Origin: an uncultured Acidobacteriota bacterium
GTDB taxonomy: Bacteria; Acidobacteriota; Thermoanaerobaculia; Multivoradales; SZUA-115
Length of the DNA stretch: 64,000 nucleotides
Assembly (NCBI GenBank): GCA_963805975.1
Contig: CAWDVR010000004.1
Span: 525,069-589,068 of the forward strand
Reading direction: 5' to 3'
Below the pieces are notes generated by a model. That model was given only the letters and a program-made list of their open reading frames with translations, made no database searches and was not told the origin of the DNA. Numbering within the stretch: the stretch's first letter is position 1; every line of letters starts with the position of its first letter. Made by a program: the position numbers and the translations under genes. This document shows positions 40,984 through 61,627 of the stretch, in pieces.

Positions 40984-41585
40984 AGCGTGGTACCTCCGAG
41001 GAGCGGTTCGAGCTCACGGCCCAGCCGGTGCCGGGTGCGGTGTAGGATGACGGCGACCGCGGTCTGCGAGGTGCCGAGCATCTCGGCGATCTCGCGGTTG
41101 CCGTGGCCTTCGAAGTAACGGAGCGAAAAGATCTCGGCGGCGCGCGGGGAGAGGGCCGCCACCTTCGAGCGCAGCCAGCCGGCGAGCTCGCGGCGGCGGC
41201 GGTCTCCCTCGGGCCCGGCCTCCGGGGCCTCGGCCAGGTCCGCGGCCACCTCGTCCAGGTCCACCGCCCGGGCGCGTTTCCTGGCCCTAAGGAGGTCGAG
41301 GGCGGCGTTGACCGCTGCCCGGTAGAGATAGCTGGCGGCGCCGGAGGAGAGGTCGATCTCCTCCTCCCGCCGGATCAGCCGCGTGAACACGGTCTGCAGC
41401 ACGTCCTCGGCGTCGGTCGCATTGCCCGTCACGCGGTAGGCGATGCGCAGGATGCGGGAGTGGTGCTGCTCGAAGAGCTCGCCCACCGCGGACTCTCCGG
41501 GAGCCTCGAAAGGCCCGGGAGGCGCGTGGGTGGGTTGGTGGACGGCGGCGATCAAGGGCTCCTCCTTCTTCGGGTCTCTAGCCAT
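40980..41585 (-). CDS. ECF (sigma-70 family group IV) RNA polymerase sigma factor
   Basis: Region 2 (ELFEQHHSRILRIAYRVTGNATDAEDVLQTVFTRL) and region 4 (SLRYFEGHGNREIAEMLGTSQTAVAVILHRTRHRL). Start at MARDPKKE, preceded by GGAGG. Confidence 0.85.
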   Translation of the reverse strand: MARDPKKEEPLIAAVHQPTHAPPGPFEAPGESAVGELFEQHHSRILRIAYRVTGNATDAEDVLQTVFTRLIRREEEIDLSSGAASYLYRAAVNAALDLLRARKRARAVDLDEVAADLAEAPEAGPEGDRRRRELAGWLRSKVAALSPRAAEIFSLRYFEGHGNREIAEMLGTSQTAVAVILHRTRHRLGRELEPLLGGTTL

Positions 41586-41855
41586 AGAACGCCTCCAGTC
41601 GCGGATTCTTACCAGGCATACGAAGATGGGGACTGGTTCGGTTCGAGCTCGCAATGCCCTGGGAGGCGCGCAGCGTTACACACGAGTAGGTACCTGGAAC
41701 TCCCACGAAATCCCTTAAATCACTGCCACTGTTGACTTTGGAGTCGGACTGAGTATGTTCTTGTCCCATGAGCTACGCCCGAGTTGCGCGCCCACTGCAT
41801 GCCCCTCGCATGCCGTGGAGCGTGCCCGAAGGCGGCCTCGAACAGGGAGGAGAGC

Positions 41856-43088
41856 ATGCGAGTCAAGTTCAGTAAAGCCACTCTTGCCAACGCGAAGCCG
41901 GGTCCGACGCGATACCTTCTTCGAGATACCCGCACCGTGGGGCTCGCACTCAAGGTTGAGCCCTCGGGCACGCGGACCTTCGTCTTCGAGTACCGAGTCC
42001 CCGGCAAGCCGTCGCAGCGCTACAACATCGGCCGCTACGGCGAGCCCTGGACTCTGGAGCAGGCCCGGGCCGAAGCCGGACGATTGCGCTCACTCGTGGA
42101 CCGTGGCCTCGATCCGCTGACCGAGCGGCGGAAAGAGGCCAGCGAGGGCCGCAGTCTGGCAGAGCTTGGCGAGATGTTCCTCGCTCACGTCGAGAAGTGT
42201 GGGCGCCGGCCTGCCACGCTCTACCGCTATCGCCGGCTCCTGAGGCAGTTCATCCTTCCGCGCCTGGGTCTGCTGCGAGTGGATCAGATCGGCGTCGAGC
42301 ACGTCGAGCGCCTCCATGGGGCTCTTCAGAAGACTCCCGTCCAGGCCAACCTGGTCTTGGTGGTCCTGGGTTGCTGCTTGACGCTGGCGGAGCGTTGGGG
42401 GTGGATCCCTCGGGGCTCGAACCCGGTGCGGTGGGTGGAGCGCTATCCGAGGCGCAGGCGCGGGGAGAAGAAGGGCGTGATGCTCAAGCCCGAGCAGATG
42501 GCTCGGCTCTTGGCGGTACTGGACGAGGAGGAGCGAGCCGGGCGTGATCCGCTCGCGATCGGTGCGATGCGGCTTGCCTTCTGGACGGGGTGGCGAGCGA
42601 AGAGCGAGATTCTGCCTCTCCAATGGGCGAACCTCGATCTCGAGGGCGGCGAGGCGAGGCTTCTCGGCACGAAACGGGCCGAGGAGGAGTACCGGATGCT
42701 CTGCGATGAAGCGGTCGCGGTGCTGCGGTCCCTGCCGCGCATCGACGGCAGCCCGTGGGTTTTCCCTGGGATCGATCCTGCGAGGCCGCGTCGAAACCTC
42801 CAGTGGTTCTGGGAGCGGGTGCGCAGGAAGGCCGGCCTGGTGGGCTTGGAGGAGCTAGGTAACTTCCGGCTCCATGACCTGCGTCACAACGTCGTCAGTT
42901 GGGACGTATCGCGCGGGGTGAGCTTGAAGGTGGCGGGCGCCAACGTCGGCCACAAGTGCCAACAGTCCACCGAGGTCTACGCCCACTTCCTGCCGGCTCA
43001 TCTAAGAGACGCGGCCAACGCGCGCTCCCAGGCCATGCGGCAGGCCCTGGAGGCCGCGCAAGGCCGCAGCGAGCAGGAGGAGGTGTGA
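41856..43088 (+). CDS. int: tyrosine-type site-specific integrase (phage integrase family, P4-like with N-terminal arm-binding domain)
   Basis: GGGAGG Shine-Dalgarno before ATG. N-terminal DUF4102-like arm-binding region. Catalytic-domain motifs (LRLHDLRHNVVS, HKCQQSTEVYAHF with the catalytic Tyr). Confidence 0.85.
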   Translation: MRVKFSKATLANAKPGPTRYLLRDTRTVGLALKVEPSGTRTFVFEYRVPGKPSQRYNIGRYGEPWTLEQARAEAGRLRSLVDRGLDPLTERRKEASEGRSLAELGEMFLAHVEKCGRRPATLYRYRRLLRQFILPRLGLLRVDQIGVEHVERLHGALQKTPVQANLVLVVLGCCLTLAERWGWIPRGSNPVRWVERYPRRRRGEKKGVMLKPEQMARLLAVLDEEERAGRDPLAIGAMRLAFWTGWRAKSEILPLQWANLDLEGGEARLLGTKRAEEEYRMLCDEAVAVLRSLPRIDGSPWVFPGIDPARPRRNLQWFWERVRRKAGLVGLEELGNFRLHDLRHNVVSWDVSRGVSLKVAGANVGHKCQQSTEVYAHFLPAHLRDAANARSQAMRQALEAAQGRSEQEEV

Positions 43089-43250
43089 GGATGCCCAGGT
43101 CCAACCAACGCGCTCTAGCAGCCCGTGGGCCGCCTGGAAGCGATGTCTGCTTCGAAGACCGCGGCCCCCAAGCCGCACCCAGAAACCAAGCGGGCCGACC
43201 GAGTGCGTGAACACCCGGCCGACCCTAGCCGACCATGGAGCCGTAACCCC

Positions 43251-43688
43251 ATGACCGACCGAGAGCAGTCTACCGCTGCCGCAATACCTCTACCCGATCC
43301 CCCTCCACCCCCCGAGGAGCCGCCCTCGCCGCCTTCGCCCTTGGATGCCTGGGAGGAGCTCCAGCCCATCCGAGAGACGTTCCTCCACCACGTGGGCAAC
43401 GCCGAGACTCAGCAGGCTCTCCGCGCGATTGGCGATTACTTCTACCAGGCCGTTCTCGAATGGCGGAACTTCCCCGACGCGGAAACACCGATCATCCTGC
43501 TGGAGCTCGAAGCCGTGGCCAAGGACGTGCGCTATCTCCAGGGCTTTCTGCACCACACGGTGGCCGACGACGGCCGGGGCACTCTGGCCGATGCCCGGTA
43601 CGAGCGCTGGCTCAAGGTGAAGGCCGAGGAGTGGGCCGACACCCTCGGCGAGGTCGCCACCGAGATCGAGAAGGCGGTGGCGGAATGA
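43251..43688 (+). CDS. hypothetical island protein (Pro-rich N-terminus, helical C-terminus)
   Basis: ORF with PLPDPPPPPEEPPSPPSP followed by a helical region. An alternative GTG start at 43125 is possible. Confidence 0.4.
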   Translation: MTDREQSTAAAIPLPDPPPPPEEPPSPPSPLDAWEELQPIRETFLHHVGNAETQQALRAIGDYFYQAVLEWRNFPDAETPIILLELEAVAKDVRYLQGFLHHTVADDGRGTLADARYERWLKVKAEEWADTLGEVATEIEKAVAE

Positions 43689-44511
43689 AGCCCGCCTGCC
43701 GGAGGTCCGAGCGCCTCCAGCGACCCACCTAGAAACACTCTCTACGCCGCCCGGGCCTCCAGGAAACAGGAGAGCCCGGCGGCTTCCCCCAGCTCTCCGA
43801 AACACGACCTGTCGGACCACTGGAGGCCACCTGAGGACGCGCTGCCGGAGGGAGGGGACTCGCGAGGCCCGCCCCAAGCTGCGGCTGGAGTGGCCGTCCC
43901 TCGCAGACTCGGGTACGCGCCAGGCGCTCCGCACGCCCCACGCCGGCGGCCCCCCTCACCTCGGCCCTGCCGCCGTCCTGGGGCGTGCTGTGGGTCGCTG
44001 TCCGGGAATGGCCATTCCCGGACCTGTCGCTCGGCCAGCCTAGCCTTGGCCCTCGCTGTGCGAGGGCTTGGACATAACGCGTGGCGCTATGTCAACTTGG
44101 GCGGGGTGTCAGGGCCTGCGGCCGGCCCCGGCTTCGGCATCTCGCCGGACACTCTATGTCAGTGTTTGTTCGCGGATTCTGAGTCAGGATCAGCAGAGTC
44201 GCTCTAAGCTCAAAGGATCTATTTACGCCGGCTTGATCGAGTGGCCTATCGGGCCTAGATTGACGGCATACGCTTAGCATGCGGTCTGGCGGACGACAGA
44301 AGGCTAGTTAGCGGACTAGCCCGACAGGGCGATCCTGACTCGCGGCGGGGCGAAGATGTCAGGGGGCGAGAACTATCCTCGCCCGAACTCGGTCCGTGTC
44401 GCAGTCACCCAACGGGTTAGCATCAGTAGCGGAACGCGCGTTCTGCGGTTCTGTCTGCTGCAGGCCCCGAGTTGGCCGACCTTTGCGATTCGAGACGATC
44501 GAACGATTCCC

Positions 44512-44703
44512 CTACCGGTCCTTGTTGCCCTTGCGGTACTTGTCGCCAGCCGCCTTATCTGCCCCATCCTTACTGACGCCTTTTCCAGAGTAGGTTGCGC
44601 CCCCTTTGTGGATCGTAGTCTTGTGAGCTTCGCCGATTCCCGTCCCGAGGAACGACGCGCTCATACGGCTGACCTTGTCCGGGCGACTACCCTTTTTGCT
44701 CAT
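44512..44703 (-). CDS. small basic Gly/Lys-rich protein (KGG-repeat stress-protein-like?)
   Basis: 63-aa ORF with a strong AAGGAGG Shine-Dalgarno 7 nt upstream of ATG. Sequence is rich in K/G/D with HKGGATYSGKG. Confidence 0.45.
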   Translation of the reverse strand: MSKKGSRPDKVSRMSASFLGTGIGEAHKTTIHKGGATYSGKGVSKDGADKAAGDKYRKGNKDR

Positions 44704-44790
44704 GGAATCCTCCTTTGATCACCGGCCGAGGGTATCACCCTCTCTGAGGCTGTGGCTTGCTGGCCACCGCTTTCTTAGACCGCTCACTTC

Positions 44791-45366
44791 TCATCGCAGT
44801 ATGGCAATTCGGGCTACAGACGCGACCAAGCTGCCGGCGCCAACCGCGATGGGTACCCACCGCTCAAGAACGGCACGCACTGAAAGAACTCGGAAGTGCT
44901 GATCGATCTCGGCACGAAAGAGCCGTGTGAACTCAGCGCGCTTCCCGCCCAGCCAGACCTCGAACTCTTCAGGATTCTCGTCTGGTTCCGGCGCGAGATT
45001 CGTGTACTGAGCGGCTAGCCTTGCGGCGGAACTTGAAAAGACACGCTCGCGGTCCATGGCCCAAGCCTTTAGATCGGCCGTGCTGTAGATCCAGAATGCC
45101 GTCAGTAAGTAGATCTGCACCGCGCAGAGAACTCCAAGCAGTCTGCCGGTATCACCGGCCGAGAGTTCGACGCCCAATGCATCGATCCTGGAGGGGATCA
45201 CCCCTCCAACCGCGACCACGAGTTGCGTAACGCTGACGGTTAGCAATGCCCGCCTCTCTTTGCGCGACTCCTCTGACAGAGGATCTACGAGGGCCCTCGC
45301 CTCAGTGATTTCGGCCCGTTCTTCCTTTTCCCAGATCTTCGGCATCGGTTCCTCATTGCCGGCCAA
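44791..45366 (-). CDS. hypothetical membrane protein (two predicted transmembrane helices), island cargo
   Basis: 191 aa. Transmembrane segments LLTVSVTQLVVAVGGVI and LLGVLCAVQIYLLTAFWIY. Lies 25 nt downstream of the preceding cargo gene on the same strand. Confidence 0.5.
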   Translation of the reverse strand: MAGNEEPMPKIWEKEERAEITEARALVDPLSEESRKERRALLTVSVTQLVVAVGGVIPSRIDALGVELSAGDTGRLLGVLCAVQIYLLTAFWIYSTADLKAWAMDRERVFSSSAARLAAQYTNLAPEPDENPEEFEVWLGGKRAEFTRLFRAEIDQHFRVLSVRAVLERWVPIAVGAGSLVASVARIAILR

Positions 45367-45391
45367 CGGCTACCCGTCTGATCGCGTGGCG

Positions 45392-46246
45392 TCAGCCGCT
45401 CGCTCCAGCCGGTTGATTGGGCATCTTTAGGGCGCCCTTCTCTTCAGGCCAAGCTCGCTCAAACCAAGAATAGTGAGCTCCGTCCGGATCCTCGAAGTCT
45501 TCGCACGCCACCCAGATCTCCGCCTCGGGCCTCCTCGCTAGGCTCGCGACCAAGGCTCTCCACCAGGCTTCCCCGGCGTGTGCAACGGAGCCTTGCGGAT
45601 CAAGCAGCACGACTTGGCGATCGTTGCTGTACGCCGCAAACTTTTTCATGGCCGAGGCAAGGAGTCTCTCGAGCTCAGCTGTGAGCTCCGCGGGAATCGG
45701 CCTCGGCGCCTGCCACATCTCCAGCGGCAGCAGGAATCTCACGCTGGTCTCGTGGGCGTACTCATCAAGATCTGATTCGCGAAGGTGCCGCAGACTCCAG
45801 TTCGGCTGGCCCCTCTTCTCGATCCCCTGGCCAGCCTCCAGAACCGACCAGTGCTCTGCAACGATTCGTGCCATCTGCCCCACCGTCTCCTCAATCTCCG
45901 CTCTCCGAGTAGGCCGATCGCCGGATATTGCGAGCTCATAAGGGCCATCGAGCACGGCAGTTGGGAGAGCTGCACGAAGGGCACCAATCAGGGCATGATC
46001 TGACGAATGTCGGACTACGTACTCGGCCGGCCACACAAGGCACTTCCGCTCGATAACCATCCGACCCCTGCATCGGTCGCAGTACAGTGCTTCAGGCTGG
46101 GGCGTATCCCGGATCCGTATGTCGAGACAAGTGACGTGCTCATACGCAGAGCCCTCGACATCGTTAAGCTGTTCGACTAAGGGCTGAACGCGCCAGAACT
46201 CGCAACCGCCACTCTCGGGTAAACAGCTCATTAGTCCCCCACGCAC
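45392..46246 (-). CDS. hypothetical protein with N-terminal Cys cluster, island cargo
   Basis: 284-aa ORF in the lower-GC region. N-terminal C...C / CxxC arrangement (CLPESGGCEFW...CDRCRGRMVIERKC). No recognisable family. Confidence 0.45.
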   Translation of the reverse strand: MRGGLMSCLPESGGCEFWRVQPLVEQLNDVEGSAYEHVTCLDIRIRDTPQPEALYCDRCRGRMVIERKCLVWPAEYVVRHSSDHALIGALRAALPTAVLDGPYELAISGDRPTRRAEIEETVGQMARIVAEHWSVLEAGQGIEKRGQPNWSLRHLRESDLDEYAHETSVRFLLPLEMWQAPRPIPAELTAELERLLASAMKKFAAYSNDRQVVLLDPQGSVAHAGEAWWRALVASLARRPEAEIWVACEDFEDPDGAHYSWFERAWPEEKGALKMPNQPAGASG

Positions 46247-46821
46247 GTCGCGCCCAAATCAGTGCTCTGCATTGGACGGTCCAGGCCTCCAGGATCCTTG
46301 AGATCCTCACTTGTTCGTCGAGGTCCTAGAGGGGTTAGGGCTATGTCCATGCGAATCGATTTCGGATGCCAGTACTTAGCAGCATTCTACGCCTACTTGA
46401 ATAAGAGTCAACGAGGCCGAGAGCCCTGGCTTGGTGCCTCGCCCCAAGACCCCGCCTGAGCTCGCTATCGCTCGGCTCTTCCGGCTGCATGAAGAGCGAC
46501 TGAAATACGGTTCACATTTGAACCTTGGTCTCTCTGTCTCACCTCTGGTACCTCTTTGCCCCATGCGCGGAGCCTGGATACCCAACCTCTCGGAGCTTGT
46601 CCGTTCAGCCCTCTTGGAGCGTCCCTCTCAGCGACCGCGGGGGGCCGAGGACGAATCTCGCCCCCTACAGCAAGCTCCTGCGTCCAGCCTCCTCGCCGTC
46701 GGTCGGTCGCTGCGAGTCAACTTCTTGCCGCCGCCTGGGCTCCGAAGAGGAGCCACCGGCAGCAAAGCATTGCCTTGGAGGGTAAGCGACGGATTTCTCC
46801 TCTGGCTCGGGCTCACCGTTC

Positions 46822-46953
46822 CTGACGACGAAGCAAGCCGCCGCGTACCTGCGCCTGGAGCCCAGCACGCTCGAGAGCTGGCGTTCCGTCGGAGGCGGCC
46901 CTGTGTTCCACAAGCTCGGCGGGCGCATCTACTACACCCGCGCCGACCTCTAG
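46822..46953 (+). pseudogene. AlpA/excisionase-family HTH (MerR-like) ORF lacking a canonical start; possibly degenerate xis
   Basis: Translation (F)LTTKQAAAYLRLEPSTLESWRSVGGGPVFHKLGGRIYYTRADL matches the excisionase/AlpA HTH_17 pattern. An in-frame TAA lies about 13 codons upstream of the HTH with no ATG/GTG/TTG between (only a CTG at 46822). The ORF stops right after the conserved RADL. Confidence 0.45.
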
Positions 46954-47116
46954 GCTTGGATTGAGTCCCGGCGTTGCCGATCGACTGCCGAGCACTGGGC
47001 GAGAAGGTCAAGGGATCGTCCTACCGAGCGCTCCGGCTTCCTCGGTCGAACCTCGAAACCGTAACGGTCGGGTGCTGCCGGCCGGTGCCGCTCCGAAGGA
47101 CTCGGAGGAGTCGGCC

Positions 47117-50100
47117 TCACCGCCGCAGGCGTACGCGGGCCTCCTCGCCTTCTGCCAGCACGTCTCGAATCCAGTGACCTGCCCGCTGCGCGATGCTGCG
47201 CCCGAGAGACAAGCTCCAGGTCACGGCGATGTCGAAGGCACGGGGAGCAGCTTCCGCCGAAGCGCGAGCCAGGTTGCCCAAGTGGGAGGCTGCCGCATCG
47301 GGTGGCAATCCACGACTGGAGGCGACCTCGACCCAGGCCGCTCGCCAGGCCAGCTCTGAGACGTCCCGTGGCGGCCGGCCGGGCTCGGGAAGCTCTGCGA
47401 AGGCACGCTGTTGGCCGTCGAGGTGCCGGAGCCAGGTCACGGCCTCGGCCGAGTTGGCGAAGAGCCTGACGGCCTCCTCTGGCCGCAGAGCCTCGCCTCC
47501 GGCGAGCCGCTTCGCCCGTTCCAGGATCTCGGGGGTCAACCGCGCCAGCGCGTCGAGGCCGGCGCGCGGGTCCTCGGTCGGCCTGGCCATGGGCAGTGTG
47601 ATTCGGTGAGCGGGGATCTCGATCAGGAGAGCCGCATTCAGCCGGCGCAGGGCCTCGGGGGAGAGGTCCCCGGCAGCAACCCGCGAGGTGATCTCCGCCA
47701 ACCGCTCGCGGGCCGTGGCCGATTGGATGGCGAGGGCCTCTTCCACGGCTGCCCGCTCCGAAGACTCGACCCGCCACCAGCCGTAGCCGCGAAGCGCCTC
47801 GGCAGGCTCCTGGCGCGTGAGCTCACGGAGCTTCTGCTCCGCACTCGCCGGCCGGGCCTCTCGCGCTTCCGCGCGCTCCAGTAGGAGCTGGGCGACGGTT
47901 CGCTCCTGCAACGACTCCACGGCTTCCGGCCAGCGCTGGGCAAGCCCTCCTTCTGCGCGCAGCCTCGTCCAGTGCGCCTCCAGCTCGCCGAGGTGGGCGC
48001 GACACTCGGCGACGGAAGTCGAGGCGCCTGCCGGCGCCTGGGGCGAAAGCCCAAGCTGGATCAAGAGCCGCGCTTCCCGCCGAATCAATCGCTCGTAAGC
48101 GTTCCAGGTCTCGTCGGGCCGCTCGCGTTCCAGGAGTGCCCAGCCGAAGCGCTCTCGATGGAGGGAGAGCTGTACCAAGGCCAGCCGCGAGTACGCATGC
48201 TCGGCCTGCTCCATCTCTCCCCGAGCGAGACTGTAGGTGTGAGCGAGCGCCTGATAGGCGGAGATCCTCTCCAGTGACGGGGCCGCTTCGATGCTCGCCG
48301 CGGCCGTCTCCACCCGCTGCCAAGCCGAAAACATCTTCCCGCGCGCATCCTCGAAGGCTTGCCGAGCCTCGCGAAGCCTGCCGGCAAGCTCGCCCTCGAC
48401 TACCAGCAACCGGTCTCCAGCCTCCCGCGATCCTCCTGGCTCCCGGGCCAGTGCTTCGGCGATCACCTCCCGATTGACCCTCTGGGCTCGTGCGAGAAAG
48501 TCGTCCACGGGCTCGTAGGTCCCAGCGGCGCCTGGGTCGTGAGGAGACCGCCGCTCTGGAAGTGACAAACGAGCTTCGATGCCGCCCAGACGGCCCGGAG
48601 ATGGAAAGTCAACGCGGGAGTAGTGGAGCGGGATCTCCGCGCGAGCGAGAGGCGCTTCGAGGCGTGGAGTGTCCAAACGTCGTAGCCGCTCGTGTAGATC
48701 CTCGCGGCGTTCGCTGCGCAGCCCGTCGAGCCAGGGCCGCGACGCCGAGAACGGCTCCTCCCGTACCTCGGCAAGCCTCACTCGGACCCGCTCGCCAGCC
48801 GCTTCGAACGAGGTTCCGGGGAGTCGGATGGCATCTCGGAATATGCCCCGCGGCTCTGCGATGCCGAAGCGGTCCGCGAGGCCCTGGCGCAACGCCTGCT
48901 CCTCGTCCTGCGAGAGGGCCTGATGGCTTCGTAGCCACAGGTCATAGCGCTCGCCCGCACGAACCAGGACGGCCGGCTCGAAGCCATGATGGCGCAGAGT
49001 GACCACCTGCTCGGCGGTCAAGTCGCGAAAGGCCACCCTGCGGGACCGGTCCTCGCCGATCCGCCGCGCCAGAATCGCAGCCGCTCCCGAGCGCTCTGCC
49101 CGGCGGGCCTCGGTGAGCGCCTGTTGGAGGGTCAGGCTGCCCCGCGATGGGTCGAGCAAGCGAGCCTCGACCCGCTGCAAACCCTCTGCGGCCTCCTTGG
49201 GGCTCAAGGGCAGCACGATGTAGCTTCCTCCCGGCATGGAGCGGTCCGTGCGAAGCCAGTCGAGCGAGACGAGCTGCCGGGCCGGCAGCTCCGGCCGTTG
49301 GTTGAGCTGCCGCAGATCCTCGGCGCCGTCCGGCTCGTGTTGCAGAGCCTTGCGAAGCCTCCGAGGGCGGGAGCCCTGCTCGGGTGAGCCTTGGGAGGGA
49401 GCACTACCTGCCAGACGAAGCACCTGCTCCCGGTCGCGACCGGGATCGTAGGCGAGCTGGAAGGTGGAGACGAGCTTGCCTGCGCGGAAGGCTCGACCGA
49501 GCTGCGACCCCTTGAAGGCTATGCCATCGCGCGAGAAGGAGATCCCTCTTAGCTCACCATCCTTGTCCAAGAGTACGTGCGTCGAAAACCCTCGGGCTCG
49601 TAACGTCGCCAGAAACTCAGCAAGGGTCCGTGCGTCCCTCGCCACCTGGGCCACTTCCACCTGAAACACGGCCCGCATCGACTCCTCACCCTGCGCGGCG
49701 CGCTTCATCTCGCCTTGGCTGGGACTCTTGAGGAACGCCGCCTCGGGCGGTTCGACTCGCACGAGGTTCCATCGGTTCTCGATCTCGCGGGCGATCCGTA
49801 CACAGCGCAGCTTGTCGAAAGCCTCGGAGATTGGCTGGCCCTCCCAGGTCGTCGGTGTGGTCACGAGGTGCACGTGGTCGTTGTCGGTGTCCTTGTGGAG
49901 GAAGGCCACGTAGGGCGCTTCGCCGTAGCCCATCCTTTGGAGGAAGAAACGCACCGCCTCTCGCATCTCGTCGTCCGGCCGATGCTCGCCGGTCGCGTAC
50001 GAGAGGACGAAATGCTTCACGAACTGCTTCTTCCTGGACCGATAGGTACTGTTGACATCCGTGATCCAGCTCGCCCACTCGCTGGGGGTGGAGCCTGGGA

Positions 50101-50200
50101 TGTTGGCGTCCAAGAGAAAGGCGTTGGGTCGTGCCGTGCGCCCAAGGTAGTCGATCAGCCGCCGAGGCTGCGAGCCCACCTTGCACAGCTTCACGATCAC
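47117..50200 (-). CDS. MobA/VirD2-family relaxase (mobilisation nuclease) with ~700-aa C-terminal extension
   Basis: N-terminal relaxase domain (FVKHFVLSYATGEHRPDDEM...APYVAFLHKDTDNDHVHLVTT) including the His-rich metal-binding motif. 1027 aa. Start overlaps the mobC stop. Confidence 0.8.
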   Translation of the reverse strand: MIVKLCKVGSQPRRLIDYLGRTARPNAFLLDANIPGSTPSEWASWITDVNSTYRSRKKQFVKHFVLSYATGEHRPDDEMREAVRFFLQRMGYGEAPYVAFLHKDTDNDHVHLVTTPTTWEGQPISEAFDKLRCVRIAREIENRWNLVRVEPPEAAFLKSPSQGEMKRAAQGEESMRAVFQVEVAQVARDARTLAEFLATLRARGFSTHVLLDKDGELRGISFSRDGIAFKGSQLGRAFRAGKLVSTFQLAYDPGRDREQVLRLAGSAPSQGSPEQGSRPRRLRKALQHEPDGAEDLRQLNQRPELPARQLVSLDWLRTDRSMPGGSYIVLPLSPKEAAEGLQRVEARLLDPSRGSLTLQQALTEARRAERSGAAAILARRIGEDRSRRVAFRDLTAEQVVTLRHHGFEPAVLVRAGERYDLWLRSHQALSQDEEQALRQGLADRFGIAEPRGIFRDAIRLPGTSFEAAGERVRVRLAEVREEPFSASRPWLDGLRSERREDLHERLRRLDTPRLEAPLARAEIPLHYSRVDFPSPGRLGGIEARLSLPERRSPHDPGAAGTYEPVDDFLARAQRVNREVIAEALAREPGGSREAGDRLLVVEGELAGRLREARQAFEDARGKMFSAWQRVETAAASIEAAPSLERISAYQALAHTYSLARGEMEQAEHAYSRLALVQLSLHRERFGWALLERERPDETWNAYERLIRREARLLIQLGLSPQAPAGASTSVAECRAHLGELEAHWTRLRAEGGLAQRWPEAVESLQERTVAQLLLERAEAREARPASAEQKLRELTRQEPAEALRGYGWWRVESSERAAVEEALAIQSATARERLAEITSRVAAGDLSPEALRRLNAALLIEIPAHRITLPMARPTEDPRAGLDALARLTPEILERAKRLAGGEALRPEEAVRLFANSAEAVTWLRHLDGQQRAFAELPEPGRPPRDVSELAWRAAWVEVASSRGLPPDAAASHLGNLARASAEAAPRAFDIAVTWSLSLGRSIAQRAGHWIRDVLAEGEEARVRLRR

Positions 50201-50598
50201 GGCGACTCTCCAGCCGCCCTCTCGCCACCCAGCACGGCGAAGATTGTCTCCAGGAGCAGCCGAAGCCTCTCGAGGGTCGGAGCCAGGGCCTCCGGCGCCC
50301 GATGGGTGTAGGTGAGGACGAGAAGTTGGTTGAGATTGTTGCCCAGCCGGTTGAGCTCCCCGATCAGGCGCAGGTCGACCGCGGAGCGTGCGGGGCGCAC
50401 TCGGTGTCGCAGTCCTAGCTCTCGGAGGTAGGAGGAGACCGCCAACCCTGCCGCAGTAGCCGACTCCTCAAGCGTAGCGAGCTCCGTGGGTGAGAGCCGA
50501 ACTCGACAACCGAGGTTGCGCCGCTCAGGCTCGGGCAACTGGGGCCGGCCTCGCTGGCGAGGTCGGACACCCGATCCTTGGCGCAGTGTGTCGCTCAA
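50197..50598 (-). CDS. mobC: MobC-family relaxosome accessory protein
   Basis: Signature (LIGELNRLGNNLNQLLVLTY) plus N-terminal RHH-like region (VRLSPTELATLEESA). 133 aa. Confidence 0.8.
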   Translation of the reverse strand: MSDTLRQGSGVRPRQRGRPQLPEPERRNLGCRVRLSPTELATLEESATAAGLAVSSYLRELGLRHRVRPARSAVDLRLIGELNRLGNNLNQLLVLTYTHRAPEALAPTLERLRLLLETIFAVLGGERAAGESP

Positions 50599-50639
50599 CT
50601 CGTCGCCACTCCGGGACCGGGGCAGGAGCGCTCCTCACT

Positions 50640-50830
50640 TTGCGGCTGGTCAAATTTACGGCCGTAAACGCGGCCCGATAGTCGAGGGGTCCAGCCTGAA
50701 AAATTTTGGCCCCAAAATTCGCACAAGTACCTCAGCGAGAGCTGTTCGGTTAGGACTCGCCGGCGTGAAGTTGAAATCGGTCCGCTTCCGTTTACGGTTC
50801 GTAAATCTGCGCCATCGTCTCGGCGAGCGC
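50640..50830. promoter_or_regulatory. candidate oriT / mob promoter region with two related palindromes
   Basis: Perfect 14-bp palindrome TTTACGGCCGTAAA (50664-50677) and related GTTTACGGTTCGTAAAT (50790-50807) immediately upstream of mobC, the usual oriT position. Confidence 0.45.
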
Positions 50831-51255
50831 GGTGGGTCAGAACTCGCCGCAGAAGCCTCTTCCCGAGCGGAGCGAGCGCTTCCGGGGGTCCAGGGGCTCG
50901 CCCCTGGCAAGCGGCCCGTGAGCTTGCGAGCGGGGGTTTTTCGTGCAACGAAAAAACAGCTTGCTCGTCTGCTCCGGATGCGCTCACGAAGGCAGGCTAC
51001 GGTGGCTTCGACAAACCGCGCAACTGTCGGACCGAGGAAGAAAGAAGAGGTTGTATCGAGCTCCTGGAAACCTGATGAATTTCACTCCGTCGAGGAAGCG
51101 GCAGGCACCTCGCTCCAAGGATGCTTACGGGCGCTGAAGACCAATTGAGAGGAGACGGTGGCCCCCAGGCCCGACCCTTGGTGTGTAACTAATGGGCAGC
51201 AATGCAGCACGCACGTGGAGGTGGGTTGGTTTGGATTTGCTAGCATGCGGCAATC

Positions 51256-54200
51256 GTGAACAACCTGGCGGCGGCAGAGAGGCGGGTCGAAGATGCGTTG
51301 CGCACCAGACTGGAACATCTGGACCTCGGAGACCTAGCCCTAGAGCGCTTACCCACGCGCCTGCGAGAGCTCACTCATCTCCGAGTCTTGGCTCTGGGAT
51401 GCCTCCGACTGAGAGACGATGGGACTTTCGAGTGGGACAGCGATAGACAGCCTCCGTCCTTTTCCGACCTGTCAGCCTTGGCCGGGCTCCAAGGACTTCA
51501 GAGTCTGAACCTCAGCTACTGCGGGGGCGTGACGGACCTGTCTGCCTTGGCCGGGCTCCAAGGCCTCCAGAGGGTGGACCTCAGCTACTGCGGGGGCGTG
51601 ACGGACCTGTCTGTCTTGGCCGGGCTCCAGGGCCTCCAGAGCCTGAACCTCAGCTTCTGCAAGGGCGTGACGGACCTGTCTGTCTTGGCCGGGCTCCCAG
51701 GCCTCCAGAGCCTGTACCTCAGCGGCTGCGAGGGCGTGACGGACCTGTCTGTCTTGGCCGGGCTCCCAGGCCTCCAGAGCCTGTACCTCAGCGGCTGCGA
51801 GGGCGTGACGGACCTGTCTGTCTTGGCCGGGCTCCCAGGCCTCCAGAGCCTGGACCTCAGCGGCTGCGAGGGCGTGACGGACCTGTCTGTCTTGGCCGGG
51901 CTCCAAGGCCTCCAGAGCCTGAACCTCAGCGGCTGCGAGGGCGTGACGGACCTGTCTGTCTTGGCCGGGCTCCAAGGCCTCCAGAGCCTGTACCTCAGCG
52001 GCTGCGCGGGCGTGACGGACCTGTCTGTCTTGGCCGGGCTCCAAGGACTCCAGAGCCTGAACCTCAGCTCCTGCGCGGGCGTGACGGACCTGTCTGTCTT
52101 GGCCGGGCTCCAAGGACTCCAGAGCCTGAACCTCAGCTTCTGCAAGGGCGTGACGGACCTGTCTGTCTTGGCCGGGCTCCCAGGCCTCCAGAGCCTGTAC
52201 CTCAGCGGCTGCGAGGGCGTGACGGACCTGTCTGTCTTGGCCGGGCTCCCAGGCCTCCAGAGCCTGTACCTCAGCGGCTGCGAGGGCGTGACGGACCTGT
52301 CTGTCTTGGCCGGGCTCCCAGGCCTCCAGAGCCTGGACCTCAGCGGCTGCGAGGGCGTGACGGACCTGTCTGTCTTGGCCGGGCTCCAAGGCCTCCAGAG
52401 CCTGAACCTCAGCGGCTGCGAGGGCGTGACGGACCTGTCTGTCTTGGCCGGGCTCCAAGGCCTCCAGAGCCTGTACCTCAGCGGCTGCGCGGGCGTGACG
52501 GACCTGTCTGTCTTGGCCGGGCTCCAAGGACTCCAGAGCCTGAACCTCAGCTCCTGCGCGGGCGTGACGGACCTGTCTGTCTTGGCCGGGCTCCAAGGAC
52601 TCCAGAGCCTGAACCTCAGCTTCTGCAAGGGCGTGACGGACCTGTCTGTCTTGGCCGGGCTCCAAGGCCTCCAGAGCCTGGACCTCAGCTACTGCCGGGG
52701 CGTGACGGACCTGCCTGGCTTGGCCGGGCTCCAAGGCCTCCAGAACCTGGATCTCAGCTTCTGCCGGGGCGTGACGGACCTGTCTGTCTTGGCCGGGCTC
52801 CAAGGCCTCCAGAGCCTGGACCTCAGCTACTGCCGGGGCGTGACGGACCTGTCTGCCTTGGCCGGGCTCCAAGGCCTCCAGAGCCTGAACCTCAGCTCCT
52901 GCCCGGGCGTGGCGGACCTGTCTGCCTTGGCCGGGCTCCAAGGCGTCCAGAGCCTGAACCTCAGCGGCTGCGAGGGCGTGACGGACCTGTCTGCCTTGGC
53001 CGGGCTCCAAGGCGTCCAGAGCCTGAACCTCAGCGGCTGCGAGGGCGTGACGGACCTGTCTGCCTTGGCCGGGCTCCAAGGCCTCCAGAGCCTGAACCTC
53101 CGTAACTGTAAGGGCGTGACGGACCTGTCTGGCTTGGCCGGGCTCCAAGGCCTCCAGAACCTGAACCTCAGCTCCTGCCCGGGCCTGATGGACCTGTCTG
53201 CCTTGGCTGGGCTCCAAGGCCTCCAGAGCCTCGACTTCAGCGACCGCCAGGGTGTGACGGACCTGTCTGCCTTGGCCGGGCTCCAAGGCCTCCAGAGCCT
53301 GAACCTCAGCGACTGCCTGGCCGTGACGGACCTGTCTGCCTTGGCTGGGCTCCAAGGCCTCCGGAGCCTGAACCTCTACTCCTGTCGGCCGCCGATCGAA
53401 AACACCGTTCTTCGGAACCTGGTGGCAAGCCCTCGGCTAGCGAGCCTCATCTGCGACGAGGGGGAGAGCATGCCGCGAGAGGTTCTCTCGCATGAGTCCG
53501 ATGAAGACTGTCTCCCACGTCTCCGTAGCTTCTTCGCTGAGATCGACCGAGGCGCAGAGGCGGAGCGGGAAGTGAAAGTGATCCTGCTAGGCAACGGCTG
53601 TGTTGGGAAGACTCAGCTCTGTCGTCGGTTTCGCGATCAGCCTTTCGACGAAGCGATTGGATCGACTCACGGAGTCCAGATCTGGCGGGACGAGCTCCGA
53701 CTCCCATCGCGTGGCGAGCCAGAGAATGCATTTCAGGTGAACTGGTGGGACTTCGGCGGACAGGACATCTACCACGGCACGCATGCGCTTTTCCTACGCA
53801 GTCGCGCCGTGTTCCTGCTTCTCTGGACCCCACAGCTCGAGAACCGCGACGAATACACGGAGCAGGGCATCCCGCTACGCAACCAACCCCTTGCCTACTG
53901 GCTGGACTACGTCCGTACTCTGGCTGGCGACGGCAGCCCCGTGATTGTGGTGCAAAGCAAGTGCGACACCTTCAAGCACGAGCTCTCAGCTCCGAATAGG
54001 CCCGAGGGACTCGAATTCTTCCGCTGTTGCGCCTACAGTGCCGTCACGGATTTTGGCAGAGAAGTTCTCGAAGTCCAGCTCCGCGAAGCGGTGCGCTTCC
54101 AGCTTGAGAAAACCGGCTCTCTAGCCATCGGACACGCTCGCGCTGAGGTTCGCCGCCGGCTCTATCAGATGCGCAGCGAGGACCAGGAACAAAGACCAGA

Positions 54201-55743
54201 GGATCGTCGGCACCGCACTCTAACTCTGGACGAGTTCCGCAGCCTCTGCGAGGAGGTGGGCGGCATTGCCTCGTGGGAGCATGCCCTCGACTACTTCCAC
54301 CACACCGGCGTGGTCTTCTATCGCCCGGATCTCTTCTCCAATCGCATTCTCCTCGATCAGGACTGGGCGCTCGAAGCGATCTACACCGTATTTCATCGCG
54401 GCCGAGCCGCGCGCTGGCTGCGGGACTCTGGGCGCTTCAGCCGCGAGGATCTCTCGATGATGGCCTGGCAACAGCATTCGGTGGAGGAGCAGAAGCTCTT
54501 CCTCGGGCTGATGGAGAGCTGCGGCGTGTGCTTCGCATGCGGTACCGCTTCCCTGGGGGAGACGATCTATGCGGCGCCGGACCTGTTACCACTGTTTTCG
54601 GCTGTGCAAGGGCGGCTCTTCGGCTGGAAGGACGACCCCCAAGCACCGTCCTTGTGGCTCGAGTATCAGTTTTTTCACCCCGCAGTGATTCGCGGCCTGA
54701 TGAGCGCGATCGGCCGCCAGGCGGGAGAGGCCGCCGAGTATTGGAAGTATGGGTTCCGGCTCTGGGATCGCAAGCGAGATGCTCAGATCCTGATCCAGCA
54801 GCATGACACGAGCACCAACGAGACACCGGGACAGGGAGCCCTGGAGCTGACGGCGCAGGGCCGTGATGCACTCGGCCTTCTCCGCGGGATCTGGAAGGAG
54901 ATCCGGCAACGTCAGATTGGCGAGCCGCCCGAGGAGTTCCTGAGCCTGGAGGGCGTGACCGTTTCGCGCAGCGCCATGGCCAACGCCATGGAGGGCCAGA
55001 CGCACGCGACGGATGGACGAGTGGTGCCTGTTGCGCCGTTCGCAGCCTTCTTCGAGGACCGCGAGCCCGAAGCCACCGGCGGGAGACGGCCCACCGAACT
55101 CCGGCTCGACTTCGATCCCGGTATCCCTCCAGCGGGGGAGAAACTGCCGGAGGTGTTCATCTCCTACGCTTGGGGGGACGACAGCATGGAAGGACGTGTG
55201 CGGACCGAGGTGGTTGAGCGTCTGTGCGCGGCGTTGAAGATGGATGGCTTTGCACCGGTGCGGGACCGAGAGGCTCTGCGGCCGGGCGAGCTCATCTCTG
55301 CCTTCATGAAGCAAGCGGCAAGAGCCAACCACGTCGTGGCCGTGATCAGCGACAAGTACCTGCGCTCACCGTACTGCATGTTCGAGATCCACAGGATCTA
55401 CCAGCAGTGCGAAGCCGAGGCGGAGAGGCTGGCAAGGCGCGTCCTGCCGATCGTCTTACCCGACGTTCGGCTGGCGACTTTCGAGGAGCGAGCCCCGTAT
55501 CTGCGCCTGTGGTCTCGGCGTGAGAAGACGCTCGGGAAGCTCATCCGCGACCCGGAGCTGCATCCCAGTGAGGCCTCCTGGACCGAGTACCGCCTTGTTC
55601 ATGACTTCGCCCACCACGTCGACTCAATCCTCGGCTTCATCCAAGATGTTCTGATGCCCCGGAGGCTTGAGGTTCAGCTCGAGAATGGCTTCGAAGCCGT
55701 GAGGGAGGCCCTACGAAGGCGGATCGCGAGGGATGGAGCGTAA
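51256..55743 (+). CDS. ROCO-family protein: N-terminal LRR array - Roc GTPase - COR - C-terminal TIR domain
   Basis: 1495 aa. About 27 tandem 23-aa LRRs (consensus DLSVLAGLQGLQSLNLSGCEGVT). Roc GTPase with P-loop GNGCVGKT, switch II WDFGGQ and G4 SKCD. About 350-aa COR-like region. TIR domain (EVFISYAWGDD...VAVISDKYLRSPYCMFEIHRIY) with the Glu at the position of the catalytic Glu of TIR NADases. Confidence 0.85.
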   Translation: MNNLAAAERRVEDALRTRLEHLDLGDLALERLPTRLRELTHLRVLALGCLRLRDDGTFEWDSDRQPPSFSDLSALAGLQGLQSLNLSYCGGVTDLSALAGLQGLQRVDLSYCGGVTDLSVLAGLQGLQSLNLSFCKGVTDLSVLAGLPGLQSLYLSGCEGVTDLSVLAGLPGLQSLYLSGCEGVTDLSVLAGLPGLQSLDLSGCEGVTDLSVLAGLQGLQSLNLSGCEGVTDLSVLAGLQGLQSLYLSGCAGVTDLSVLAGLQGLQSLNLSSCAGVTDLSVLAGLQGLQSLNLSFCKGVTDLSVLAGLPGLQSLYLSGCEGVTDLSVLAGLPGLQSLYLSGCEGVTDLSVLAGLPGLQSLDLSGCEGVTDLSVLAGLQGLQSLNLSGCEGVTDLSVLAGLQGLQSLYLSGCAGVTDLSVLAGLQGLQSLNLSSCAGVTDLSVLAGLQGLQSLNLSFCKGVTDLSVLAGLQGLQSLDLSYCRGVTDLPGLAGLQGLQNLDLSFCRGVTDLSVLAGLQGLQSLDLSYCRGVTDLSALAGLQGLQSLNLSSCPGVADLSALAGLQGVQSLNLSGCEGVTDLSALAGLQGVQSLNLSGCEGVTDLSALAGLQGLQSLNLRNCKGVTDLSGLAGLQGLQNLNLSSCPGLMDLSALAGLQGLQSLDFSDRQGVTDLSALAGLQGLQSLNLSDCLAVTDLSALAGLQGLRSLNLYSCRPPIENTVLRNLVASPRLASLICDEGESMPREVLSHESDEDCLPRLRSFFAEIDRGAEAEREVKVILLGNGCVGKTQLCRRFRDQPFDEAIGSTHGVQIWRDELRLPSRGEPENAFQVNWWDFGGQDIYHGTHALFLRSRAVFLLLWTPQLENRDEYTEQGIPLRNQPLAYWLDYVRTLAGDGSPVIVVQSKCDTFKHELSAPNRPEGLEFFRCCAYSAVTDFGREVLEVQLREAVRFQLEKTGSLAIGHARAEVRRRLYQMRSEDQEQRPEDRRHRTLTLDEFRSLCEEVGGIASWEHALDYFHHTGVVFYRPDLFSNRILLDQDWALEAIYTVFHRGRAARWLRDSGRFSREDLSMMAWQQHSVEEQKLFLGLMESCGVCFACGTASLGETIYAAPDLLPLFSAVQGRLFGWKDDPQAPSLWLEYQFFHPAVIRGLMSAIGRQAGEAAEYWKYGFRLWDRKRDAQILIQQHDTSTNETPGQGALELTAQGRDALGLLRGIWKEIRQRQIGEPPEEFLSLEGVTVSRSAMANAMEGQTHATDGRVVPVAPFAAFFEDREPEATGGRRPTELRLDFDPGIPPAGEKLPEVFISYAWGDDSMEGRVRTEVVERLCAALKMDGFAPVRDREALRPGELISAFMKQAARANHVVAVISDKYLRSPYCMFEIHRIYQQCEAEAERLARRVLPIVLPDVRLATFEERAPYLRLWSRREKTLGKLIRDPELHPSEASWTEYRLVHDFAHHVDSILGFIQDVLMPRRLEVQLENGFEAVREALRRRIARDGA
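51472..53360 (+). repeat. tandem 69-bp coding repeats (LRR units) organised in a 483-bp higher-order unit
   Basis: Marker CAGCTTCTGCAAGGGCGTGACGG recurs at 51651, 52134 and 52617 (483-bp spacing, 7 LRRs per unit), with near-identical DNA between copies. The antisense ORFs 51472-53355 and 51585-52628 are artefacts of this repeat. Confidence 0.9.
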
Positions 55744-56157
55744 GTTCACCTTCCGCCGGACGCGATGAGAACGGGCCTTGATGACACCCTGCTGCCCTAC
55801 TGAAGGGTCGCCAGAGAAGTAGACATCGACCGCGACTTGAGAACCCTCAAGATCGCATGCTGAGCGCATGCCGATGTCGCGCGGCAAGAGAATGCCTTCG
55901 CCGCCATCTCAGGAAGTTATAGATTCGATGGGGGCTTAGCGTGGCCCTCATCCGAGCCGTTCATCTCATACTGAGATCGCAGCGTTACCCGAAGGGGGCG
56001 TCGAGCACCGCATCAGGGCCTTGCGAGCTCGAACCGAACCGCCAGACCGGGTGTGCTTGGTTCCCGCGCCGGCCCTCGTGTACGCTTTCCATGCATGGCC
56101 GTGCATGAACGTTTTTCTTTCCCTCTTTGCCGTCTATCTACCCTGGAGGCCCTCACC

Positions 56158-57033
56158 TTGAGACGGACCCACACCGCTTGGCAAGTGCTCCGCCTGCTCG
56201 TCCCCGCTCTCGTCCTGGTCGCTGCCTCGGCCGCCCAGGCCCAGGAAGAAAAGAAGCTCGGCTGGTCCGACACCGCCGAGCTGGCGCTGGTGGCCACCGC
56301 CGGCAACTCGGAATCGTCCACCCTCGGCCTCAAGGACACCCTCTTCCACGGCTGGGAGAACGCCCGCTTCCAGCTCGACCTGGGAGCGCTGCGGGCCAAG
56401 ACCAGCACCTTCAGCCGGACGGCGATCGGCACCGGCGCCGGGGACTTCGTGCTGATCGAGGACGAGGAGAGCAAGCTCACGGCCGAGCACTACTTCCTGC
56501 GCGGCCGGTATGAGAGGGACCTCTCCGCGGCCTTCTACTGGTTCGGGGGCGCCGGCTGGGAGCGCAACGAGCTCGCCGGCTTCAGGAGCCGCACCTCGGC
56601 CGTCGGCGGCGTGGGCCGGGTGTGGCTCGCCGGCGAGACGGCGCGCTTCAAGACCGACGCCGGTCTCACCTTCACCGACCAGGACGATGTCACGGACAAT
56701 CCCGCCGCCGACTCCCAGTTCCTGGGCGTTCGCCTCTCCTACGACTACTGGCGCAGGCTCACTGCCTCGACCGAGTACGCGAGCGTGCTGATCGTGGACC
56801 TGAACGCGGACGAGACCGACGACCTGCGCGCCGACTTCACCAATTCGGTGGCAGTGTCGATGTCCGAGCGCCTGGCTCTCAAGGCAGGCCTGCAGCTCCT
56901 GTTCGACCACCAGCCGGCCCTGGCCGCGGTGCCGATCATCCGCCCCGACGGCACCCCGACCGGTGCCGTGGCCTTCGCCGAGCTCGACGACCTGGACTCG
57001 ATCTTCACCGTCTCCCTGGTCGCCAGCTTCTAG
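56158..57033 (+). CDS. outer-membrane beta-barrel protein, DUF481 (YdiY-like); start TTG (or ATG at 56095)
   Basis: GGAGG 10 nt upstream of TTG gives a typical signal peptide (RRTHTAWQVLRLLVPALVLVAASAAQA). DUF481-like alternating beta-strands, ending in F. Confidence 0.7.
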   Translation: MRRTHTAWQVLRLLVPALVLVAASAAQAQEEKKLGWSDTAELALVATAGNSESSTLGLKDTLFHGWENARFQLDLGALRAKTSTFSRTAIGTGAGDFVLIEDEESKLTAEHYFLRGRYERDLSAAFYWFGGAGWERNELAGFRSRTSAVGGVGRVWLAGETARFKTDAGLTFTDQDDVTDNPAADSQFLGVRLSYDYWRRLTASTEYASVLIVDLNADETDDLRADFTNSVAVSMSERLALKAGLQLLFDHQPALAAVPIIRPDGTPTGAVAFAELDDLDSIFTVSLVASF

Positions 57034-61379: not shown

Positions 61380-61391
61380 TGTCCTGTCCGA

Positions 61392-61424
61392 GAGCCGGAT
61401 GCGGGAGATCCGCACGTCCGGTTC
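61392..61424 (+). ncRNA. group II intron domain V (catalytic hairpin)
   Basis: GAGCCGGAUGCGG-GAGA-UCCGCACGUCCGGUUC: AGC triad, 2-nt bulge and GNRA-like loop as in canonical domain V. Confidence 0.8.
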
Positions 61425-61627
61425 GACGAGCGGGGAAGAGGAGACGGAGCTATGGCGGAGACTGAGGCACCGGCACTACGGCGAAAGCCGCCGGCAACAG
61501 CTACTCCCTCGGCCTGGAGCTACCGCGCCTCTCCTCGACTCTACGGCCTGGGTTTCGTCGCCGCCGGGCTTGACGCTTGCGCATTGCGTTGATAGAGGTC
61601 CGTCAAATAGGCGGAGGTCTGACAGCC

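Follow-up and report, generated by a model that had tools for sequence, protein, structure and literature searches.

The segment at positions 41669-55988 of the analysed stretch (the window; 64 kb of a Thermoanaerobaculia chromosome, phylum Acidobacteriota) is very probably an integrated integrative mobilizable element (IME) of approximately 14.3 kb, carrying a P4-like tyrosine integrase and belonging to an island family of the Thermoanaerobaculia. It looks like an ordinary kind of element with an already well-known mechanism, of which the present copy is partly decayed. To judge from its sequence, the island shows the structural make-up of IMEs as reviewed in PMC5704250 and PMC5357655. It encodes a site-specific recombinase of its own (PF13356 and PF00589 above their cut-offs, with the R, HxLRH and Y residues) and a relaxase, next to an origin of transfer (oriT) deduced from hairpins only; no complete conjugation apparatus (coupling protein and type IV secretion system) could be distinguished at the level of Pfam hits; and att direct repeats are present at its ends, and relatives lack the element at the corresponding site, although no exact empty site was recovered among them. 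Functional excision, a further mark of IMEs, is not evident, with the excisionase (Xis) encoded by a pseudogene. The coordinates of all features are collected in Table 1.

The 11-mer CGCAGCGTTAC occurs in exactly two copies in the window, against a chance expectation of 0.03 copies. The initial annotation had already proposed an 11-bp repeat; its existence and right copy (55978-55988) stand, while the left copy lies at 41669-41679, one base off from the 41670-41680 given there. Comparison loci are labelled L001 to L017, and homologs of the integrase (63-81 % identity) were retrieved in L001, L002, L003/L004, L005 and L016. Among four independent elements with 70-81 % identical integrases, homology starts exactly at an invariant GTTA within the left 11-mer, and the sequence to the left of this GTTA is unrelated because the four elements occupy four different contexts. 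BLAST homology between the window and L001, a 10.7-kb relative, opens exactly at 41675 (GTTAC in the left 11-mer) and extends over 2.2 kb. The integrase-proximal arm incorporates a conserved, sigma-70-like int promoter (TTGACT-16-TATGTT at 41732-41759, identified by promoter scan) and a tandem GCATGC pair (41797-41802 and 41808-41813) that is invariant in all five integrase-homolog loci and forms a candidate arm-type or operator site. Pairs of GCATGC at 11-nt spacing are found just twice in the 64 kb (41797/41808 and 55855/55866; 0.155 expected by chance), situated 118 nt (left) and 112 nt (right) inside the 11-mers, and L001 has the same pairs at both of its ends (9942/9953 and 20448/20459). 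The right arm (55824-55949) is homologous to L001 20416-20541 (z = 10.1), and beyond the right 11-mer there is no similarity to L001 (z = -0.9). Both ends are thus bracketed independently of the 11-mer, which, as placed by these alignments, occupies the crossover region expected of the integrase family. The compact 4.3-kb relative L002 has the same geometry, with a 16-nt direct repeat ACTGGCAAGAGCACGT (9806-9821 and 14116-14131), the right end of which overlaps the GT of the GTTAG boundary. The start of the left homology, the end of the right-arm homology, the geometry of the L002 repeat and the GCATGC pairs agree in placing attL and attR at the 11-mers, as originally suggested. Mismatch-tolerant extension of the 11-mer, or of a 27-nt inverted repeat described below, gave no significant lengthening, and a scan for the family signature TTGACTTTG-N52-56-CTGCATGCCNCNCGCATGC returned no matches in either a metagenome collection or a viral collection.

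The integrase had been identified beforehand, and both its Arm-DNA-bind_3 and Phage_integrase domains were recovered, with domains and catalytic motifs intact and the R...HxLRH...Y residues visible in the sequence. It would bind the core GCAGCGTTAC, and probably also arm-type sites in the form of the GCATGC pairs ~115 nt inside each end, and would recombine a circular attP with a chromosomal site bearing the same 11-mer. A ~140-nt palindromic unit, situated between the extracytoplasmic function (ECF) sigma factor and DUF481 genes, would hold this target in its spacer, with CATACTGAGAT-CGCAGCGTTAC-ACACGAGTAGGTACC as the predicted attP junction and GCCCTGGGAGGCG-CGCAGCGTTAC-CCGAAGGGGGCGTCG as the predicted repaired attB. 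The 64-kb window contains no tRNA or tmRNA gene, in keeping with the non-tRNA target first proposed, and the integrase family occupies different non-tRNA sites in four of four cases, with repeats of 11 and 16 nt in the two that are cleanly bracketed.

Scanning a genome collection with the anti-sigma protein encoded in the left flank placed the host in the Thermoanaerobaculia and returned eight orthologous loci. Sigma and anti-sigma genes are kept in L006, L007, L008, L012, L014 and L015, together with the DUF481 and MacB genes where these are visible, and none of these loci carries the integrase, relaxase or ROCO gene. In L006 the flanking genes share 77-93 % amino acid identity with those of the window and follow the order MacB-DUF481-gap-sigma-anti-sigma. 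The nearest relative, L014 (sample SRR23911157), with a 97 % identical sigma factor, keeps ancestral sequence past TTCTTAC, which places the beginning of the window-specific DNA at 41613, no more than 27 nt upstream of the sigma ATG. With just these 27 nt of ancestral sequence remaining, the sigma promoter must now lie in foreign DNA, and since this nearest relative is without the element, the acquisition is recent. To the right, orthology to L006 upstream of the DUF481 gene resumes at ~56065 (score 21 against a shuffle mean of 8.9, sd 1.25). The two flanking genes are divergently transcribed, as annotated, and the position of the element between them is upheld. The insertion is not a clean one, with a 283-aa ancestral gene gone and ~130 nt of extra palindromic DNA present; likewise, the element is absent from the orthologous locus of five relatives as anticipated, but these do not supply an exact empty site. 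The 283-aa gene, missing from the window, is conserved in L006, L007, L008 and L012, where it lies divergently beside the ECF sigma gene; in L006 (8225-9073) it follows an ECF-like promoter (GGAAC-N15-CGTAA). The short-read contig of L016 begins 26 nt to the left of its GTTAC and that of L014 ends 72 nt upstream of the sigma gene, a pattern expected of assemblies that break at polymorphic insertion sites.

The relaxase scores 71.3 bits against PF03432 (cut-off 24.6) and contains Tyr18 in the motif LIDYLGR, as well as the metal motif HKDTDNDHVH at residue 102; on this score and these motifs it clearly belongs to the relaxase superfamily. Its relaxase domain shares 28-31 % identity with plasmid relaxases in PLSDB, mainly of Nostoc and IncQ-type plasmids, and its NCBIfam MobB score is below the cut-off. 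The lone match in a PDB sequence search with this domain was a designed repeat protein and was judged spurious. Within the C-terminal 700 aa (47117-49300; residues 300-1027) the sole family signal is a RepB_primase match (residues 384-462, E = 0.004), which falls below the cut-off and hints at a relaxase-primase fusion. The initial annotation had described a pair of MobC and a MobA/VirD2-type relaxase. The latter is sustained, while the accessory protein matches the NikA-like family PF21983 and not the Pfam MobC family, with weak NCBIfam-level matches to MobA, MbpA and TraJ; since 'relaxosome protein MobC' is the annotation of the gene upstream of those plasmid relaxases that are most similar, the MobC label is acceptable. 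Upstream of nikA there are six perfect hairpins (starting at 50624, 50655, 50702, 50791, 50890 and 50937), of which two have the motif TTTACGG..CGTAAA in common, and the palindromic oriT-like sites noted before mobC are thereby recovered. The NikA-like protein and the MOBP-like relaxase would assemble at oriT in this hairpin-rich region, nick one of the strands and lead it out through the mating pore provided by a conjugative element in the same cell. The other open reading frames (ORFs) of the element have no Pfam matches and thus include no coupling-protein or type IV secretion genes at that level, so that transfer would depend on a helper conjugative element, as defines an IME rather than an integrative conjugative element (ICE); no helper of this kind was identified in the window.

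The degenerate AlpA/excisionase helix-turn-helix (HTH) ORF reported earlier was found as described. Its HTH frame (46819-46950) has no ATG, GTG or TTG start after the upstream stop and is closed by an in-frame TAG (46951-46953); with this TAG read as Asp, the remnant matches the excisionase family phrog_66 at 4e-10. It shares 59-62 % identity with two intact L002 proteins, in an alignment that continues through the TAG, which represents a single substitution within otherwise conserved sequence. Together with a 7.1-kb internal inversion and a truncated gene, both described below, the xis pseudogene suggests that autonomous excision has probably been lost, or is very inefficient, in this copy.

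The element differs in composition from its host in guanine plus cytosine (GC) content and tetranucleotide usage, the comparison of which had been suggested: the GC content is 0.648 for the element and 0.698 for the host, and the tetranucleotide distance is 2-4x background over 42-56 kb. The GC drop reported for 43.7-46.6 kb is visible as a trough of 0.595 over 44140-46430. A backbone of int and orfA is common to L001 and L002, with orfA sharing 87 % identity with the gene downstream of int in L001 and 45-68 % with two copies in L002, and having no Pfam, PHROG or PADLOC match. Block B (272 nt) shares 94 % DNA identity with L001 12409-12680, to which it is inverted, and includes the first 60 codons (92 % amino acid identity) of a gene that encodes 181 aa in L001 and is truncated here. 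Block Y (50854-51014) shares 84 % identity with L001 11959-12117, again inverted. In L001, 290 bp separate the two blocks; in the window 6.7 kb lie between them, comprising two hypothetical genes together with the relaxase and nikA genes and what is left of xis, and the 7.1-kb segment 43868-51014 is inverted relative to this closest relative. Part of the xis region (46271-46417) matches the element that hosts the L002 island, not the L002 int element itself. Given the inverted blocks and this latter match, the island is a rearranged mosaic. On the same backbone L001 carries different cargo, comprising a UvrD/PD-(D/E)XK protein and Multi_ubiq/ThiF/BubE genes. The two hypothetical genes of the window gave no Pfam, NCBIfam, PADLOC or PHROG match, and Rfam no match inside the element. 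Block B is 94 % identical although the two integrases are only 80 % identical at the DNA level, and includes three hairpins, one of them the perfect palindrome GTCCGGGAATGGCCATTCCCGGAC. An imperfect inverted repeat of ~43 nt (~65 % identity; 43808-43852 and 50970-51014) is situated at the breakpoints of the inversion and may be a relic of that event.

The largest cargo gene encodes a protein with leucine-rich repeats (LRRs) and Roc, COR and TIR domains. Its LRR array consists of 28 units of 69 nt (51328-53490) with ~90 % identity between units, and incorporates a perfect 547-nt identity at a 483-nt lag (51634-52180 = 52117-52663). This 7-unit tandem duplication is very recent and makes the protein longer than any relative among the matches listed. 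A ROCO protein is recognised from its Roc (PF08477, 73.1 bits, cut-off 27; residues 774-904) and COR (PF16095, 56.3 bits, cut-off 35.3; residues 982-1110) domains, and these are followed by the TIR domain (PF13676, 55.3 bits, cut-off 28). The closest solved relative of the latter is the TIR domain of plant RUN1, and the Glu of CMFEI lines up with that of CLDEL in RUN1, a residue replaced by Ala in PDB 7s2z; at the sequence level both a TIR fold and the conserved catalytic Glu of NADase-type TIR domains are therefore present. The Roc-COR-TIR portion has more than 500 homologs with 50-66 % identity, most of them in Thermoanaerobaculia and Acidobacteriota and many with LRRs, of which the closest is found in an ordinary chromosomal context with pst/phoU. 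PADLOC recognised no known defence system, giving a weak bSEFIR match on the TIR domain. The protein may plausibly be regarded as an NLR-like, NAD-consuming sensor.

Several of the results weigh against the identification as an IME with ends at the two 11-mers. A direct k-mer of at least 11 nt common to both junction zones arises with P = 0.036 in simulation, so that the 11-mer is weakly significant alone and the case for attL and attR rests on the related elements; a clean direct repeat was not found at the ends of L001 itself (z = 0.8). The relaxase falls far below the NCBIfam equivalog cut-offs (TraI_MobP_relax, 73.8 against 250 bits; MobP1, 29.8 against 200 bits), the region upstream of nikA has no RP4-type or RSF1010-type nic motif, and xis is a pseudogene. 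No exact empty site was found: the relatives have the secreted-protein gene of 283 aa at this position, as in the gap of L006, and the L014 contig ends 72 nt upstream of the sigma gene. Finally, the DNA that is novel relative to the nearest relatives spans 41613 to ~56064 and thus reaches past both att cores; its bounds are formed by a 27-nt inverted repeat, the arms of which (41635-41661 and 56014-56040) are 26/27 complementary.

This inverted repeat is unique in the window and lies outside the conserved element, as four relatives are without it. It falls within filler DNA, 56 nt to the left and ~76 nt to the right of the att cores, which belongs to neither the ancestral locus nor the conserved element. 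With the element removed in silico, the resulting ~140-nt site folds as one long hairpin (-43 kcal/mol, z = -5.2), in which the 11-mer falls within a 43-nt spacer and the outermost 9 nt on either side also pair. The arm GGTTCGGTTCGAGCTCGCAA had no matches in the JGI metagenome collection, and the flanks of the L002 element yielded no significant inverted repeat. Of the two features by which a transposon is recognised, a transposase gene and a target-site duplication, neither was detected, with no transposase domain in 41613-56064 and no direct repeat outside the arms. That the arms carry ECF-type -35 elements (GAACC) for the flanking genes was also considered and set aside, the left spacing to the CGT -10 being off by one and no such element occurring on the right. 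Palindromic units of the same shape (arms of 18-26 nt, spacers of 50-100 nt) and unrelated in sequence recur in these Acidobacteriota sequences. The best reading is that the element entered the spacer of a pre-existing palindromic intergenic unit, which had already replaced the ancestral gene. A bolder and improbable idea is that long palindromic intergenic units attract the integrase family to their spacers or loops by structure, and not by sequence alone. Such targeting would explain why four sites share GTTA only, as well as the central position of the element in a palindrome with a 27-bp stem. If true, it would make the family a general vehicle by which immune-type cargo reaches the regulatory intergenic DNA of Thermoanaerobaculia, namely the ROCO-TIR gene here and a UvrD/PD-(D/E)XK nuclease with a ubiquitin-like Bub system in L001.

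Rival accounts concern the extent, the nature, the history and the present state of the island. That the acquired unit is the larger 41613-56064 is unlikely: the inverted repeats would then be the (sub)terminal repeats of a transposon-like element, or the unit would be an IME with ~60-75 nt of donor flanks, the ancestral gene would have been replaced in one event, and the 11-mers would be internal sites rather than junctions formed here. The breakpoints against L014 (41612/41613) and L006 (~56064/56065) do lie symmetrically, 22-24 nt outside each near-complementary arm, the repeat is found nowhere else in the window, the outer 9 nt pair in the fold, and the missing ancestral gene is not explained by a simple Int-mediated insertion. 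However, neither a transposase gene in the element nor a target-site duplication at the outer breakpoints is present, the inverted repeat cannot be extended under strict alignment, four related elements have no counterpart of 41613-41674, the arm is unmatched in the JGI collection, and palindromic units of like shape but unrelated sequence are found at other places in these genomes where there is no element. It is very improbable that the island, instead of an IME, would be a self-transmissible ICE, prophage or phage satellite. P4-like integrases are common in satellites and prophages, and the element adjoining that of L001 has AlpA and a DUF927 primase-like gene, but profile searches recovered no capsid, terminase, primase-helicase, VirB4 or VirD4-type gene from the 14.3 kb. 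The functional PHROGs matches are confined to the integrase and the Xis remnant, with the NikA-like protein matching one family of unknown function, and the viral contig collection was devoid of the family signature.

The accounts of history and state are of greater weight. The island could well be a fusion of an int-orfA-xis island of the L001/L002 type with a foreign mobilization module (44140-50853; relaxase, NikA, oriT and nearby genes), such that int and mob do not form a co-evolved IME unit and the mob genes are perhaps passengers or relics; this has a substantial probability, if clearly not an even one. It draws on the proximity of blocks Y and B in L001, where a relaxase is nowhere to be found in the 10.7-kb element, on the compact L002 element with int, orfA and xis only, on the match of 46271-46417 to the L002 host element, which also has a weak NikA-like gene, and on the inversion of the 7.1-kb segment. 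The mob module nevertheless lies wholly inside the att cores and would move with the element anyway, the relaxase and nikA reading frames are intact, and modular mosaicism of this kind is normal for IMEs (PMC5704250, PMC5357655); a fusion alters the history of the element, not its present nature. Closer still to an even chance is the view that the island is a fixed, decayed and immobile remnant, its direct repeats relics and ROCO-TIR now a plain chromosomal gene. The two lesions in xis, the truncated gene remnant with the internal inversion and the ordinary chromosomal setting of the closest ROCO-TIR homolog all favour this, while int, relaxase and nikA still have intact reading frames and catalytic motifs, both 11-mers are still identical, the nearest relative without the element implies recent acquisition, the xis TAG is a single substitution in otherwise conserved sequence, and the directionality factor could come in trans. 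Taken together, an IME delimited by the 11-mers, mosaic in build and partly decayed, is the preferred reading.

Table 1. Features of the island, its insertion site and compared loci (positions refer to the window unless a locus is named)
Feature	Position	Strand	Basis or remark
FecR-type anti-sigma gene, left flank	38296-40983	-	next after ECF sigma gene
ECF sigma factor gene, left flank, outside element	40980-41585	-	Pfam, NCBIfam; orthologs with conserved synteny in L006-L015
Left filler, window-specific, outside element	41613-41668	.	L014 homology ends 41612; related-element homology starts 41675
attL core, left CGCAGCGTTAC	41669-41679	+	GTTA inside is the invariant first conserved position of four related elements
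Integrase-proximal arm (P')	41680-41855	+	conserved in 5 loci; int promoter and GCATGC pair
Tyrosine integrase, N-terminal Arm DNA-binding domain, P4-like	41856-43088	+	PF13356 2.8e-16; PF00589 5.7e-16; phrog_1 9e-48
orfA, integrase-family partner gene	43251-43688	+	mechanical ORF starts 43125
Block B, promoter region and first 60 codons (44038-43859) of truncated gene	43868-44139	-	inverted relative to L001
Two hypothetical cargo genes, low GC (0.595)	44791-45366; 45392-46246	-	ORFs; no family matches
Excisionase (Xis/HTH_17-like) pseudogene	46804-47010	+	translation; phrog_66; L002 alignment
Relaxase, 1027 aa, MobA/VirD2-type nuclease domain, MOBP-like	47117-50200	-	PF03432 1.2e-19
Relaxosome accessory protein, NikA-like ribbon-helix-helix	50197-50598	-	PF21983 2.2e-19
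Candidate oriT region	50599-51014	.	six perfect hairpins
LRR-Roc-COR-TIR protein, 1495 aa	51256-55743	+	Pfam LRR, Roc, COR-A, TIR_2
Distal arm (P)	55744-55977	+	L001 homology; GCATGC pair 55855-55860 and 55866-55871
attR core, right CGCAGCGTTAC	55978-55988	+	right copy of 11-mer, just past right-arm homology
Right filler, window-specific, outside element	55989-56064	.	L006 orthology resumes ~56065
DUF481 gene, right flank, outside element	56159-57033	+	Pfam; synteny with L006 and L012
MacB/FtsX permease, right flank	57039-59495	-	next after DUF481 gene
Palindromic units elsewhere	34243-34342; L008 1429-1554; L013 2549-2683	no strand	shape only
Palindromic units, L017, both intergenic	L017 7526-7611; 11080-11220	no strand	flank chromosomal ROCO-TIR homolog

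Further mobile features are encoded around the island and its relatives. Outside the element, to the right of the MacB gene, there is a group II intron (59579-61544), recognised from the Rfam families group-II-D1D4-4 (59579-59719, 104 bits) and Intron_gpII (domain V/VI, 61390-61544) and from an ORF for a reverse transcriptase/maturase (RVT_1 and GIIM; 59787-61379). In L001, two different integrase genes lie back to back (8049-10001), so that two islands abut, and the interval between them contains a 27-nt direct repeat (9492-9518 and 9792-9818, copies spaced by 300 bp), which encloses a fragment resembling a tRNA 3' end (GGTTCGAGTCCTCCAGGGTGCACCA) that was not called by ARAGORN. In L002 (8480-14131), the insertion point of the compact relative is the 3' end of a DUF6094 gene, itself part of a different mobile element with SSB, RadC, a second integrase and a NikA-like gene; the int gene of the compact relative is split by an insertion sequence with an rve-type transposase.

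The mobile elements of Acidobacteriota are little characterised, and an island family in Thermoanaerobaculia is now defined. It is marked by the GTTA boundary, the int promoter and the GCATGC pairs ~115 nt inside each end, with flexible non-tRNA targets and exchangeable cargo. The end signature can be used for delimiting further islands in metagenome-assembled genomes, a result that is useful for annotation rather than surprising. Furthermore, an NLR-like LRR-Roc-COR-TIR gene, of a family very common in Thermoanaerobaculia, can travel on such an island.

Classical P4-type islands are inserted in the 3' ends of tRNA or tmRNA genes and flanked by repeats of 15-25 bp. The island resembles these P4-type (Arm-DNA-bind_3/DUF4102) islands in having the same two-domain integrase, encoded at one end and reading inward, and repeated motifs in both arms as expected of arm-type sites, but its integrase family uses non-tRNA sites. 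NBU1 of Bacteroides and SGI1 of Salmonella are examples of IMEs that combine a tyrosine integrase with a relaxase of their own. With such IMEs (PMC5704250, PMC5357655) the island shares the integrase and an Xis-type factor, a relaxase accompanied by a small accessory protein of the ribbon-helix-helix type, a hairpin-rich candidate oriT beside them, the absence of mating-pore genes, short flanking direct repeats, adaptive cargo and a mosaic, modular build. It is distinguished from them by its host phylum, Acidobacteriota (Thermoanaerobaculia), by the inactivation of xis, by a non-tRNA target with an 11-bp core inside a palindromic intergenic unit, and by a relaxase of 1027 aa with an uncharacterised C-terminal region of 700 aa and 28-31 % identity to the plasmid relaxases of PLSDB. 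The cargo protein, in turn, is comparable to the Chlorobium Roco protein, Thoeris ThsB and plant TNL receptors (RUN1) in its sensor-like LRR array, Roc GTPase with COR dimerisation domain and C-terminal TIR domain, as well as to the NTP-dependent conflict systems of PMC7159879. Its gene is situated on a mobile island, as are many defence genes; unlike these, however, the protein matches no known PADLOC defence system apart from the weak bSEFIR match, and its family is abundant and often chromosomal in Thermoanaerobaculia.

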